Origin: Alphaproteobacteria bacterium
GTDB taxonomy: Bacteria; Pseudomonadota; Alphaproteobacteria; GCA-2731375
Reading direction: 5' to 3'
Assembly: GCA_965225945.1 (NCBI GenBank)
Contig: CBDDBZ010000037.1
Span: 160,001 to 224,000, forward strand
Length of the DNA stretch: 64,000 bases
The first letter of the stretch is position 1; every line of letters starts with the position of its first letter. The notes under the pieces are model-generated. The model had not been told where the DNA came from. It worked only from the letters and a program-made list of their open reading frames with translations, and searched no databases. Made by a program: the position numbers and the translations under genes. Of this stretch, positions 14,113-31,657 are shown piece by piece.

Positions 14113-15190
14113 GGTTCCGGTTCCTCAGGCTTCGAACCCGTCGCTCATTTCAACACGACGGTCACATTCGTCGGATTGGCGACGACGTCGTAAACCGCCG
14201 AACGCTTCTGCGACTGGGCGATGATCGCCTCGATGTCCTCGCGGCTGGCGTCGGCGTCGATGTCGTAAGTGATATTGATGCCGCCGAAGCCGTTGCGGAC
14301 CTCGTCGTCGATGCCGAGGATGCCTTGCAGGTCCATGTCGCCCTCGATCGTCGCGGTGACCGAGTTCAGTTGGATGTTGCGAAACTGGGCGACCGCGGCG
14401 ATGCCCGCCGTCAGACAACTGGCCAGCCCCACCAGGACGTATTCGACCGGCGTGGCACCCAGGTCCTCCGAGGCAAAAACCTCCGGGTGATCGGCATCGA
14501 AGGTAAAGGTCTTCGTAACTGCCCAGGTAGCTGATTTCGATGAGGCTGCGGATTGGGTCTCTGGGGGCAGATTTTGTGGGTTTGGGGCGCTGACGGCCTA
14601 GATTTCGTTTGACAGAGGGTGGTTGGTCGATTCTAAGGATTCGATGGATAGGGATGTTCTTGCCTTTTTGTCGAAAGACGAGCTGATCGATGTGGTGCTG
14701 GCCCAAGGGTCGCGGCTCGCCGAGTTCGAACTCCGGCTTGGTGAACTCGAGCGCCGGCTTGGCCTGAACAGCACGAACAGCGGCAAGCCACCGTCGAGCG
14801 ATGGATTGAACAAGCCACCGGCGGGTAAAAAGAAGCGCACCAGGAGCCTCCGTAAGAAATCGGCCCGCAAGCCGGGCGGGCAAAAGGGCCACAAGGGCGA
14901 GACCCTGCGCCAAGTCGCCGATCCCGACGCCACCGTCGACCATTATCCCGAGACGTGCCAGTGGTGTGGTTCGGGATTGACGCCGGATATGGCTACCGGC
15001 CATGGGGCCCGCCAGGTTTTCGATCTACCCGAGCCCCGGCCCCTGGTGGTCACGGAGCATCGGGCGCATCGCTGCCGTTGCGGGCATTGCGGCACGTACA
15101 CTCGGGCTTCTTTTCCCGTCGCCATCACCGGCCCGGTTCAATACGGCGCTCGGATCGGAGCCATGGTGGTCTACCTGTCGCACTACCAAC

Positions 15191-15977
15191 CTTGCCTATC
15201 CGGTTATCACCCACACCCACTATATGTAGTGTGTCTCCTTGGACTGCAGGCAAGGGCCGGCGCAGGCGCATTGAGGAGGCGATCCGGCTAATTCTTGATT
15301 GTTCTGAAAACCGAACCGGAGTTTAATTCACGTCACGTACTTAACATCGGGGGACGGAACGGTGGCGACCAAGGGAAAAACGAAGAAACCCACGGCCAGA
15401 CGGGAAGCTGCTGATGAAACGACATCGTCTGAGCGATTGACGGCACTAGTCGAACCCACTATATGTAGTGTGTCTCCCCAGGACTGCAAAGCGACGCGCT
15501 GGCACGAATCGTTGCGAAGAACCCGTCCGCGCCTGTTAGTCTCCTGCGCGTTTTGAGTCGCAGCGAAGACGAAGCGACACGCAAGAACGTGATCCTCAAT
15601 CCGTTTACTTCATATGACGTATTGAGCGAACTTGAAAACCAGTTCACAGAGCTATTTGTGAATAATCCGGCACTCGAATCCTACAATTCAATGAAGCTCT
15701 GATTTCCTGGAATATTCCATCGGTGTCGTTCACCTCCGATTTCAGATAAATTTCAATGAAGTGACGGTCCTTTATGCAACGTGGCGTTTTGCCAAATCCG
15801 ACTCAATGATTAGGATTTCCACCACGCTAAAGTGTCGCCTAAAAGGCGCTACAATGCCGTCCGAGTCCCTGCTCGGCATCGCCGGAGATATCTCCGCTTC
15901 GACCTGCACCGAGCTTTACTCAGGAAAATGGGTGCACACTACATATAGTGGGTGTGGGTGATAACCGGATAGGCAAG
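15191..15977. mobile_element. Non-autonomous TIR element with passenger gene, copy 1 (787 bp)
   Basis: Perfect 43-bp TIRs at 15191-15233 and 15935-15977; perfect 8-bp TSD CTACCAAC; no transposase; near-identical to 30311-31065. Confidence 0.95.
15362..15702 (+). pseudogene. LRV/HEAT-repeat passenger gene frameshifted by a TIR-derived insert
   Basis: Same sequence as 30482-30790 except that 33 nt (15455-15487) replace a single G. Confidence 0.8.
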
Positions 15978-17230
15978 CTACCAACTCCTGCCCGAGGACC
16001 GCCTGGCTGAATTGATGAAGGATCTGTTCGGGGCGGAACTGTCTCCGGCGAGCCTCGCGCGGATGGGCGGGAACAGCGCCGAGTCCGTCCAAGGCGTCGT
16101 CGATGTGATCCGCGAACTGGTGAAATCGGCGCCGGTCAAGCACATGGACGAGACCGGCTTGCGGATCGCCGGGCGGACCCAATGGTTGCACGTCGCCTCG
16201 ACCGCGCGGTTGACCTTCTATCGGGTCTCGGAGCGACGCGGCAGCCTGCTCGGCGGAGTCGGCGGCATCGTCGTCCATGACCACTGGAAGCCGTACTTTA
16301 CGATGGAGGGCGTACGGCACGCGCTGTGCAACGCCCATCACCTGCGCGAGTTGCAAGCCCTGATCGAGATCGAGAAGGAGGGCTGGGCACGCAAGATGCA
16401 GAGACTATTGCGCCGCGCCTGCCACGCGGTAAATCTCGCCCGGGAGCGGGGCGTGGCGCTGAAACCAGGCCTCGTCGAGCGCTTCCGAGGGTGTTACGAC
16501 GCGATCACGGCCGAGGGCATCGCCTTTCACGAGGCACAACCTCCTCTTGCGCCCAGATCGAGCAAGGCCAAGCGCCGGGGAAGCAAGCCGCGCCGCACCG
16601 GGCACAACCTTCTCCGGCGCCTTCAGACACACAAGGAAGACGCGCTGCGCTTCCTCATCAATTTCGCCGTGCCGTTCACCAACAATCAGGCCGAGCAGGA
16701 CGGGCGCATGATGAAGGTCAAGCAGAAAATCTCCGGCGGCTTCCGCAGCCAGAAAGGCGCCGAAGACTTTGCCACCGTCCGCGGCTTCATCTCGACCGCC
16801 AGAAAACAGGGCTGGAACATCATCCAGGCGCTCATGGAAAATCCCGAAACCCTGATCGAGCGTCTCCACGCCGCCTAAAAGGCCACCATGTACCTGGGCA
16901 GTTACAGGTCTTCTTGTGCATGTGCTCTTCGCCGAGGCCGAAGAAGCCTTCGACGGTCGAATGGCTGTAGGTGCCGTTCTTCCATTCGCAGGACGCGCGC
17001 CACATGAACTGGGCCGCTTCGGGCGCATCGGTCAGCGCCGTGCGCGCGCCGATCAGATGCTCGACGTTGACGCCGTTATTCGCTGTGCTTCCACCCTCGG
17101 ACATGTCGCCACTCCCTCTGTTGCCGCCAAGATGTTCCCTCTGCCCTGCACCATAGCAATGACAATGGTCGGGCGTCCAGGGAGCAATATCGGCGGGGTC
17201 CGGACCGACCTCGCGAGCCATTGCCGGCGG

Positions 17231-27168: not shown

Positions 27169-28263
27169 CGTCCCTATCCGGTTAAGGCAGGCAGCGCTCC
27201 CTGCGATTGTATACCGTCGACCAGTTCCCTGTAGGTGATGGTCGGTCGGGTCATGGCGCGGTGCAACACGAAATCGGCAAGGTCGAAGATGCGTTTGCGC
27301 CGGTTGAAGCGGTAGTTCCATTCCCGGACGTAGCGCGGCAAATGCTTGGCGCTCACCCCGTGGTAGGTTCCGTTGAGCCACGTCTTCACGTTGGAAAACA
27401 GGACATGGACGACCGGCATGAGCTGCTCGGCGTTCTTGCCTTGGCCTTGAACGACGGGCTGGTGGCGATAAGTATCGCCAAGCTTGGCGTAACTCTTGAA
27501 AGCGTCGCTGTCGAGGCGGCTTCCCGGCTTCACCGAGGCGCGCACGAAGTCGCCCAACTCACGGGCGGTGGCCTCGGGCAGGATGGCGAGCCGCGCGGCG
27601 CCGGCGGCGAAGCCGCTCCCCTTGATGCCCTTGCCCGACCCGACCGGCCACTTCTCGACCGCCATCACCAACAGGCTCTTGTTCGGGTTGGAAAGCCCGC
27701 GCCCCCGGCTCTCCGGCTTGCCCCGCCCGCCGTAATAGCTCTCGTCGACCTCGACCAAGCCCTCCAGCGGGAACTCCGGGCGCTCCGTCAGGGCATGGCG
27801 CAGCTTGTGGGCCATCAGCCAGGCGGTGTCGTAGCGCAGGCTCAACTCTCGCGACAGAAACAGCGCCGAGACCCCGCGCTTGTCGCGCCCCATCCACCAC
27901 GCCGCCAGGAACCATTTGCGCAACGGTGTGCGGGTGCGGTGGAAGACCGTGCCCGCGGTCACCGATTCCTGATGGCCGCAACCGGCGCATTCGAAGACCC
28001 GCGGCCGCGTCTTCAATTGGTAGTTCCGCCTCTCGCCGCAACGCGCGCAGACGTAGCCTTGCGGCCAGCGCAGCCGAGCCAGCGCCTCGATGCAGTCCGC
28101 CTCCGATCCATGGCGTTCGAGGAACTCCAATATCCCGCTCATCGAATAGTCCTCCAAAAGCTCCAGCCGATGCGATCAGCCTACACCTCTATGGAGAACA
28201 TATCAAGAACATTCGGAGCCCATCCTGCTTTAACCAGATAGGGACGTTAACCAGATAGGGACG
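27169..28263 (-). mobile_element. IS1595-family element (ISSod11-like) with a tandemly duplicated outer end
   Basis: 23-bp TIRs CGTCCCTATCCGGTTAAGGCAGG (27169-27191) and 28224-28246 match 21/23; extra 17-bp end copy at 28247-28263. Confidence 0.9.
27174..28142 (-). CDS. IS1595-family transposase
   Basis: Zn ribbon (RWPQGYVCARC..FECAGC), VEVDESYYGG, SDAFKSY and VHVLFSNVK..GTYHGVSAKHLPRY..EWNYRFNRR motifs. Confidence 0.95.
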   Translation of the reverse strand: MSGILEFLERHGSEADCIEALARLRWPQGYVCARCGERRNYQLKTRPRVFECAGCGHQESVTAGTVFHRTRTPLRKWFLAAWWMGRDKRGVSALFLSRELSLRYDTAWLMAHKLRHALTERPEFPLEGLVEVDESYYGGRGKPESRGRGLSNPNKSLLVMAVEKWPVGSGKGIKGSGFAAGAARLAILPEATARELGDFVRASVKPGSRLDSDAFKSYAKLGDTYRHQPVVQGQGKNAEQLMPVVHVLFSNVKTWLNGTYHGVSAKHLPRYVREWNYRFNRRKRIFDLADFVLHRAMTRPTITYRELVDGIQSQGALPALTG

Positions 28264-29777: not shown

Positions 29778-30310
29778 GCCGGACCGGCATCGCCGGGTGG
29801 CCGGGGGCTTTACGATGCGCTCGGTCCGATCGGTGGCGCGCGCCCCATCGCGGTGAAATACCGGGTGGAATTCGAAGCCTGGAGGGGTGGCGCGAAATTG
29901 CCTAAAATTCGAAACGGATTTTAGCGGTATTTGGCTCAAAGGTTCGACGAAACAAGTTGAAAAACCACCTAAATATCAATGGTTTGCTAATCGAAATTTA
30001 AAGGATAAAATTGAAAATAAGGCTGAGAATGACGACATAATCGTTGCCGAGGAAGGATGCGACATCGGGTCGCGAGACCGGCTGAAGGGTCACCGGGAGA
30101 CGCGGATCATGGCCAGGAACGAGACGAGCCGCGATCGCCGCGCCCGAGGCGTGGGCCGTATGGTGGCCATCCTCGTACTGATCGGGATCGCCGCCGCGAA
30201 TTCGGCCCTTTTCTACTTTATCATCTGGCCCGAATTCTCGCCCCACGATCCGTTCAGTGCGATTCTCTTCTTCATCAGTGGCGGCGCACACCTGATCTAT
30301 TTCTTCATCC

Positions 30311-31065
30311 CTTGCCTATCCGGTTATCACCCACACCCACTATATGTAGTGTGTCTCCTTGGACTGCAGGCAAGGGCCGGCGCAGGCGCATTGAGGAGGC
30401 GATCCGGCTAATTCTTGATTGTTCTGAAAACCGAACCGGAGTTTAATTCACGTCACGTACTTAACATCGGGGGACGGAACGGTGGCGACCAAGGGAAAAA
30501 CGAAGAAACCCACGGCCAGACGGGAAGCTGCTGATGAAACGACATCGTCTGAGCGATTGACGGCACTAGTCGAAGAAAGCGACGCGCTGGCACGAATCGT
30601 TGCGAAGAACCCGTCCGCGCCTGTTAGTCTCCTGCGCGTTTTGAGTCGCAGCGAAGACGAAGCGACACGCAAGAACGTGATCCTCAATCCGTTTACTTCA
30701 TATGACGTATTGAGCGAACTTGAAAACCAGTTCACAGAGCTATTTGTGAATAATCCGGCACTCGAATCCTACAATTCAATGAAGCTCTGATTTCCTGGAA
30801 TATTCCATCGGTGTCGTTCACCTCCGATTTCAGATAAATTTCAATGAAGTGACGGTCCTTTATGCAACGTGGCGTTTTGCCAAATCCGACTCAATGATTA
30901 GGATTTCCACCACGCTAAAGTGTCGCCTAAAAGGCGCTACAATGCCGTCCGAGTCCCTGCTCGGCATCGCCGGAGATATCTCCGCTTCGACCTGCACCGA
31001 GCTTTACTCAGGAAAATGGGTGCACACTACATATAGTGGGTGTGGGTGATAACCGGATAGGCAAG
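30311..31065. mobile_element. Non-autonomous TIR element with passenger gene, copy 2 (755 bp, intact passenger)
   Basis: Perfect 43-bp TIRs at 30311-30353 and 31023-31065; flanks CTTCATCC / CTTCATAC match 7/8. Confidence 0.95.
30482..30790 (+). CDS. LRV/HEAT-like helical repeat protein, 102 aa (element passenger)
   Basis: Repeats VAKNPSAPVSLLRVLS, RKNVILNPFTSYDVLSEL and FVNNPAL; GGGGA RBS-like sequence before the GTG start. Confidence 0.7.
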   Translation: MATKGKTKKPTARREAADETTSSERLTALVEESDALARIVAKNPSAPVSLLRVLSRSEDEATRKNVILNPFTSYDVLSELENQFTELFVNNPALESYNSMKL

Positions 31066-31657
31066 CTTCATACCTTGGTTCGTGGTCGACGTGATCGGCG
31101 CCTCGTTCGGTACCGGCGGCGAGGATCCGAGCAAATACGAGACCAACCTGGGCGGCGATACGTCCGGCTTCTTCATGCGGCTTTGCACCTTGGTCGGCGT
31201 GCTTTCCATCGCCGTCGTCGCCATGCTCAGCCTGCTGGAAGATCAGTTTCGCGACGACGCGCCGCCGCCCGTCGCCATCACCCGGGCCAATTGTCTCTCC
31301 GTGGGCGGCGTGCCGACGATGATCGGCGGCCGGATGACCTGCAGTTTCGAATCGCAACAGCCAGCCCCCGTCGGCGGGACTGAGCCAGCCCCCGCCGGCG
31401 GAACGCAGTAGGGGGCCGGCCGCGGAGAGTTTGGGCGATGGGCCTCGCCGGGACGCCCTTGCCCGGTGAAGCCAGACCATCATCGCCCGGCGGCTCGGCC
31501 CCTCGCGGCCGAGCCGCGAGGCGTTCGAGCCAATTGCGAGCCTGGGGGATTGCGCATGATCGGTTCATGCCAGCCCGGATTTTCTGCTAGAACTCGGTGG
31601 GATCGGCGCGACCGCGCCGCGATGTATCCCGGCCAGGGATCAGGAAAGCGACGGAAC

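Follow-up and report, generated by a model that had tools for sequence, protein, structure and literature searches.

The mobile insertion cassette (MIC) MIC231 of Bacillus cereus is derived from IS231, a member of the IS4 family, and carries a cargo that varies. In the IS1595 family, "transporter IS" that carry passenger genes reportedly exist (Siguier, Gagnevin, and Chandler 2009). Transposase-less cassettes are rarely annotated, so such insertions go unnoticed. Mobile insertion cassettes are described as elements without a transposase that a cognate insertion sequence (IS) can activate (PMC3129680, PMC3281130).

The element analysed here, from an alphaproteobacterial genome, compares closely with these systems. 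Its terminal inverted repeats (TIRs) resemble the ends of an IS family: the first 17 nt are the same as the right end of a resident ISAcr1-like IS (35/43 positions identical overall), and the left end of that IS agrees with the TIR at 30/33 positions when read by eye. In place of a full transposase gene, the interior has a conserved gene that encodes a 102-aa protein of the Pfam LRV_2 family (PF25591), putatively unrelated to transposition, and the flanking target duplications are 8 bp long, like those of both resident IS1595 types. Descent from an IS1595 element is seen in a remnant of a transposase gene that aligns to the C terminus of the resident transposase, and in a tail that matches annotated ISAcr1. 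By every feature that could be tested the unit is a mobile insertion cassette, and because it codes for a protein, it is not a miniature inverted-repeat element (MITE) in the strict sense, for which a non-coding interior is expected. We found no description of an LRV-carrying IS1595 cassette in the literature; ISfinder lay outside this search and may list it.

Structure and insertion sites of the cassette

We analysed a 64-kb stretch of DNA (64,000 nucleotides, hereafter the window) on contig 37 of an assembly of 6.27 Mb in 39 contigs that is 96.6% complete. The 43-bp TIR sequence has exactly four exact matches in the window, where 100 shuffles gave an expectation of none, and these fall into two inverted pairs, one of them listed in Table 1 and the other at 15191-15233 (+) and 15935-15977 (-). 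The pairs delimit units of 755 bp (30311-31065) and 787 bp, the longer differing from the shorter by one 32-nt insertion and one substitution. The GC content of the cassette is 51.0% versus 66.3% for the genome, and of a transposase gene it has only a short 3'-terminal remnant. A first-pass annotation, made from the letters of the window, had described two near-identical units with perfect 43-bp TIRs, AT-richer than the host and without a transposase, and each of these points was borne out. Its description of the 8-bp flanking duplications as perfect is accurate for the 787-bp unit and slightly overstated for the 755-bp unit.

Table 1. Features of the two cassette copies and of neighbouring elements in the window
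Feature	Position	Strand	Evidence or remark
Left 43-bp TIR	30311..30353	+	Exact match; first 15 nt near-invariant in 57 distinct family members
Leader, 128 nt	30354..30481	+	Family alignment; mean major-allele frequency 0.77
Gene for LRV_2 helical-repeat protein, 102 aa, GTG start	30482..30790	+	Pfam LRV_2, 34.1 bits
23-nt tail, common to the ~545-bp canonical form	30791..30813	+	Tail alignment
First 126 nt of the 209-nt insertion, peculiar to the 755-bp form	30814..30939	+	Absent from short forms
3'-terminal remnant of a transposase gene of the IS1595 family; frame continues into right TIR	30940..31022	+	blastn, tblastn
Right 43-bp TIR	31023..31065	-	Exact match
Left target duplication CTTCATCC	30303..30310	.	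Right copy CTTCATAC at 31066-31073; 7/8 identical
Second cassette copy, 787 bp, ORF broken by 32-nt insertion	15191..15977	+	Insertion near 15456-15489
CTACCAAC duplication flanking the 787-bp copy	15183-15190 and 15978-15985		Perfect, 8/8
IS66-family transposase gene split by the 787-bp copy	14623..16878	+	Pfam matches on both halves
Resident IS1595-family IS of the other type, 327-aa transposase	27169..28246	-	Pfam DDE_Tnp_IS1595 and Zn_ribbon_IS1595

Excision in silico of the 787-bp unit together with one copy of its duplication restores a 493-codon frame, the halves of which match DUF6444 plus zf-IS66 and DDE_Tnp_IS66 in Pfam. The corresponding empty site is present in more than 20 uninterrupted IS66 paralogues, each with one copy of the 8-bp target; at C37:87881-88180 and 88173-88472, for example, the flanks overlap by exactly that target. 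These empty sites demonstrate insertion with duplication of 8 bp, and the cassette is thus a mobile element. The IS66-family element itself occurs in more than 20 near-identical copies, including the one at 14602-16878 of the window, and the genome is heavily loaded with IS elements, several IS1595 sub-types among them.

Removing the 755-bp unit restores a 263-codon frame on the plus strand, and a 267-codon frame on the minus strand likewise crosses the site. Neither half of the putative gene split by the 755-bp unit has a Pfam match when both strands are scanned.

The 32-nt insertion of the 787-bp copy is unique in the genome. It is an inexact near-copy of cassette positions 26-59, that is, the inner part of the TIR and the bases that follow, and either template switching or an aborted strand transfer may have produced it. 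Ahead of the gene, a Shine-Dalgarno-like GGGGGA before the start codon is conserved in the family alignment. The leader also contains TTGTTC-17-TTTAAT, a possible, weak promoter picked out by eye; a consensus promoter scan of the leader reported no site, this one included.

Alignment of tails shows the 755-bp form to be the canonical form with 209 nt added precisely where the 23-nt tail otherwise meets the right TIR. The final 83 nt of this insertion and the right TIR make up the last ~126 nt of the unit (cassette positions 630-755), for which blastn gave 77% nucleotide identity with the termini of the ISAcr1-like IS of this genome. By tblastn, the remnant aligns to residues 290-349 of the transposase, at its C terminus, and its frame reads ...SLLGIAGDISASTCTELYSGKWVHTTYSGCG; in the resident IS group, the transposase gene likewise extends into the right repeat. 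For the first 126 nt of the insertion, the matches in this genome are to other cassette copies only, and no source was detected. A metagenome protein of 174 aa (P0247) joins a peptide like that of this 126-nt segment to residues ~232-338 of an ISAcr1-like transposase, which indicates that the segment recombines with the IS elsewhere too. Comparison of the forms points to the 755-bp unit as a young sub-lineage that gained 209 bp next to its right end.

The first-pass annotation had left some 230 bp after the gene unexplained, as a remnant or a noncoding RNA (ncRNA). About half is now accounted for by the family tail and the 83 nt of transposase remnant, leaving the 126 nt for which we have no source. 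An Rfam search of the cassette tail gave no family match, its sole row being a below-threshold snoRNA model in the flank, and the folding of the tail is unremarkable (z-score, -2.0; 7 of 200 shuffles fold as well). We dropped the ncRNA on these two grounds.

Copy number, family, and the LRV gene

The window understates the abundance of the cassette, which had been counted there as two copies. A blastn search of the genome returned 71 matches of at least 700 bp, with 22 copies at 100% identity over 755 bp and 17 more that differ by one base. Scanning for the TIR with up to four mismatches found 149 ends, comprising 65 pairs and 19 solo ends. Most TIR-paired units (46/65) are exactly 755 bp long, and five have been lengthened to 1504-2353 bp by insertions of other elements. 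Among the 65 paired units, 50 have perfect 8-bp duplications, five show a single mismatch, and the other 10 show at least two, the last group pointing to recombination, composite movement, or assembly joins.

Taken together, the 50 perfect duplications define a palindromic target, G-W-W-S-S-W-W-C, with GC frequencies of 0.98, 0.22, 0.10, 0.62, 0.68, 0.12, 0.14, and 0.88 at the eight positions. Two pairs of cassettes have a common outer duplication and unmatched inner flanks: one at C24:55786-61169, with GATCAGAC outside and 3.9 kb between the cassettes, and one at C33:252803-254713, with GTTGATTC outside and 0.4 kb between them. These pairs probably moved with the intervening DNA as composite transposons.

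We collected 81 family loci, 11 on genome contigs and 70 on metagenome contigs, and tblastn matched the protein in 80 of them. Labels on the genome contigs are Alphaproteobacteria, Stellaceae, Rhodospirillales, and Rhodoplanes; in addition, one locus is from a Proteobacteria metagenome-assembled genome (MAG), one is from a Dehalococcoidia MAG, and one is a weak Pseudomonas match. Sixty loci with both ends, a unit of 500-800 bp, and no ambiguous bases were aligned, giving 57 distinct units. Their architecture is uniform, consisting of a TIR, a leader of ~128 nt, an ORF of 306 nt, a tail of ~23 nt, and the second TIR, with a unit length of 516-582 bp, mostly 534-549 bp (canonical, ~545 bp). Mean major-allele frequency across the 57 units is 0.90 in the left TIR and 0.86 in the ORF, both above that of the leader. 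Just three of the fetched loci are 754-755 bp units, with protein identities of 94-97%. Within the DNA available at each locus, an ISAcr1-like transposase gene is present at 0 of 80 family loci, with short remnants in four, and no family member examined carries any other cargo. In one marine sub-lineage with 582-bp units (L091-L093), ~43 nt at the 3' end of the ORF region are duplicated internally.

The distribution of the family is patchy. Among 401 genomes sampled evenly from the class, three have the cassette protein and four have the ISAcr1-like transposase (E ≤ 1e-100), and all three cassette-bearing genomes have a 99-100% identical ISAcr1-like transposase; these three are not independent, two being from one family, different from that of the present genome. 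One of these two genomes has six cassette copies at 99-100% identity, a sign of recent horizontal co-transfer of the cassette with the ISAcr1-like IS.

The protein scores above the gathering cut-off of 27 bits for LRV_2 and, at 19.4 bits, below the cut-off for Pfam LRV. The initial view, of a non-autonomous IS1595-type unit that has moved, makes 8-bp duplications, and carries a helical-repeat gene, is upheld. We found 234 homologues of the protein at E ≤ 0.01; among the 120 listed, most are exactly 102 aa long, with 73-98% identity, on contigs of 0.5-1.5 kb. The reading frame is open for at least 102 codons in 52 of 55 family ORFs and begins with ATG, GTG, or TTG and no other codon. Major-allele frequency by codon position is 0.859, 0.921, and 0.804 over the 57 distinct units, and for 48 ORFs compared in 1115 pairs the median Nei-Gojobori dN/dS is 0.29 (5-95% range, 0.18-0.53), a moderate constraint. 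In the present genome the ORF is intact in 53 of the 65 units, and 44 encode an identical protein. From these data, we take the ORF to be a real gene under purifying selection that defines the content of the family; the constancy of the gene across a widespread family speaks against an incidental passenger.

An AlphaFold2 model, one of the checks proposed at the outset, has a pLDDT of 82 and shows five helices after the N-terminal 22 residues. The protein is thus predicted to consist of a basic, disordered N-terminal tail (22 residues; net charge, +2.7) followed by three or so helical repeats of the LRV type (net charge, -4.5). Foldseek of the model against the PDB returned nothing at E ≤ 0.001, and a profile search of PDB sequences gave no meaningful match. 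VIA-align recovered generic HEAT/ARM-like α-solenoids only (best Z, 5.9), and a search of the ESM Atlas recovered LRV clusters only. The element is present in 11 sequencing runs recorded as RNA. In four RNA runs, contigs over 30324-31052 have a depth of 28-100 versus 0-2.6 on the flanks, although for a ~70-copy element DNA carry-over could look alike.

Because all members of the family have this gene, most copies of it are intact, and an alternative cargo never takes its place, we lean, weakly, toward a role in the service of the element itself, for example as a transposition cofactor or regulator. It could instead be a passenger that benefits the host, such as a helical-repeat protein that acts on the physiology of the host or on a eukaryote with which it lives, and the cassette would then only spread it, in the way that resistance genes are spread by classic cassettes. 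Purifying selection on the ORF, the generic use of helical repeats as binding modules, and the occurrence of the element in libraries from several environments would all suit such a passenger. A host would need just one copy, yet most copies here are intact; the absence of any other cargo and a distribution that is very patchy and tracks one IS also argue against it, and we regard a host benefit as doubtful.

We consider it improbable that the ORF is a decaying relic and that the unit arose by deletion, as a MITE, from a larger IS in which the gene and a transposase were formerly combined. The transposase remnant of the 755-bp form and the reported IS1595 members with passenger genes would fit such an origin. 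The remnant, however, is restricted to the young sub-lineage and missing from the diverse ~545-bp forms, a transposase adjoins the ORF at no family locus, and neither the dN/dS nor the proportion of open frames is that of a decaying gene.

Candidate sources of the transposase

Outside the window, the genome contains a second type of IS1595-family element, the ISAcr1-like IS, which is 1105 bp long and encodes a 339-aa transposase (L122:514-1533, minus strand) whose homologues have PF12760 and PF12762. Matching ends are annotated as ISAcr1 in Acidiphilium plasmids (RefSeq), with 84% nucleotide identity over the last 68 bp; the plasmid search found no cassette, ISAcr1-type ends being the only matches. 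The terminal CTTGCCTATC of the cassette fits nnnGcnTATC, the presumed ISfinder consensus for ends of the ISSod11 group, and ISSod11, the group named in the first-pass annotation, is at most a provisional label. About a dozen copies of the ISAcr1-like IS are present in the genome, including variants of 1121, 1631, and 1658 bp, and its duplications GACTGATC, GATCGAAT, GATTGTCC, GATGAATG, and GTTCGATC fit the cassette target pattern.

At one site (L123; C26:1253-3136), the order is GTTCGATC, cassette, GTTCGATC, 1105-bp IS, GTTCGATC. Here the cassette and the IS inserted in succession into one 8-bp target, which the first insertion had recreated. A similar 8-bp spacing occurs at C32:60181-60944. 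Given the same terminal bases, the same target, the site common to both elements, and the co-occurrence across genomes, the ISAcr1-like IS is the most likely helper to supply transposase in trans. Mobilisation of the cassette in trans by a cognate transposase is itself suggested indirectly, by the target, the common site, and the co-occurrence. An autonomous IS1595 with the exact cassette TIR, which the first-pass annotation had suggested looking for, was not found in this assembly, and a search for a parent IS with the remnant peptide yielded read-through chimeras and no autonomous parent.

The 1631-bp (C1:44070-45700, C14:57696-59326, and C15:7573-9203) and 1658-bp variants (C33:95821-97478 and C38:177697-179354) of the ISAcr1-like IS have, where the left end should be, the final ~490 bp of the transposase gene in inverted orientation, so that both of their ends are right ends. 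Perfect 8-bp duplications flank two of the five, and the duplications are offset in the other three; these variants appear to be mobile.

The first-pass annotation had nominated another helper, the transposase at 27174-28142, which belongs to the IS1595 element within the window. Its enzyme would have to recognise the CCTATCCGGTTA core that its ends have in common with the cassette TIR. This IS is plentiful, with 13 end-paired genome copies from which we set its ends; it makes 8-bp duplications; and 14 of the 16 terminal bases match the TIR, as the annotation had correctly stated. The two sets of ends differ beyond the core, however, and its transposase is only about 36% identical in amino-acid sequence to the ISAcr1-like one. 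Its target is also unlike the palindrome used by the cassette: it begins CTA, with C, T, and A in 8, 9, and 8 of the 10 perfect duplications found among the 13 copies. We therefore think it very improbable that this element is the helper, and the ISAcr1-like IS remains the preferred candidate. Just outside the right end of the window IS1595, at 28247-28263, lies a tandem second copy of its 17-nt terminus without a matching duplication.

The cassette and its relation to known systems

Considering all of these data, we assign a probability of about 0.85 to the explanation of the unit as a mobile insertion cassette that derives from the IS1595 family, is non-autonomous, and is moved in trans. Collapsed or mis-joined repeats can be practically dismissed as the source of the pattern: 10 of the 65 units have no matching flanks and some flanks recur on different contigs, but 50 distinct perfect duplications lie in distinct unique flanks, empty sites exist, and the same element is present in independent genomes and metagenomes.

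According to the cassette explanation, the unit would keep only the ends that bind a transposase and no gene for one, and would be cut and pasted, or copied, by an enzyme supplied in trans, most likely by the resident 1105-bp ISAcr1-like IS. It inserts into the palindromic G-W-W-S-S-W-W-C site and duplicates 8 bp. The 102-aa gene is its constant content, kept intact under purifying selection across diverged ~545-bp units in Alphaproteobacteria-labelled genomes and metagenomes. The 755-bp sub-lineage would have gained its 209 bp, including a transposase 3' end, and afterwards multiplied in a burst that left about 70 copies here; it also appears to have moved recently between bacterial families.

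What the protein might do for the element is more speculative. It could be the transposition factor of the cassette itself, a small adaptor that captures the transposase of the ISAcr1-like IS or redirects it to the cassette ends, with the predicted basic tail as the DNA-binding part and the acidic helical repeats as the body. Complex prediction for the ISAcr1-like transposase with the LRV protein gave scores of 0.71, 0.13, and 0.13, which speak neither for nor against binding, and we hold the adaptor to be rather unlikely. If it were correct, the cassette would be a protein-coding hyperparasite of an insertion sequence, which would explain the roughly sixfold excess of cassettes over helper copies as well as the persistence of an intact gene in every lineage of an element that has no transposase.

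Whatever the role of the protein, the cassette has made about 70 insertions in a 6.3-Mb genome, splitting genes, forming probable composite units, and crossing family boundaries at 99-100% identity. That an element the size of a MITE keeps one small non-transposase protein under selection raises the question of what a non-autonomous element gains from it.

Among described systems, the closest parallel is to mobile insertion cassettes such as MIC231, which likewise have the inverted repeats of an IS family, no transposase, a gene that does not function in transposition, target duplications, and a presumed reliance on the transposase of a cognate IS of the same genome for movement in trans. The present cassette differs in its derivation from IS1595 rather than IS4, in its very high copy number (65-71), and in its cargo, a single constant gene under selection where that of MIC231 varies. 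Like the cassette, bacterial MITEs are small (compare about 545 bp for the canonical form), have TIRs and target duplications, reach high copy numbers, and depend on a related IS, but they are by definition non-coding, whereas this unit encodes a conserved 102-aa protein. ISAcr1 of the Acidiphilium plasmids and its resident 1105-bp relative resemble the cassette in terminal sequence, in a transposase 3' end that overlaps the right repeat, and in their 8-bp duplications; they are, however, autonomous and without an LRV gene. The transporter IS of the IS1595 family similarly place IS1595-type ends around a gene unrelated to transposition, but they keep the transposase that the cassette lacks. 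Finally, the LRV protein of Azotobacter vinelandii has the same repeat motif as the cassette protein, which differs in lacking an Fe-S domain and in having only about three repeats and a basic tail.
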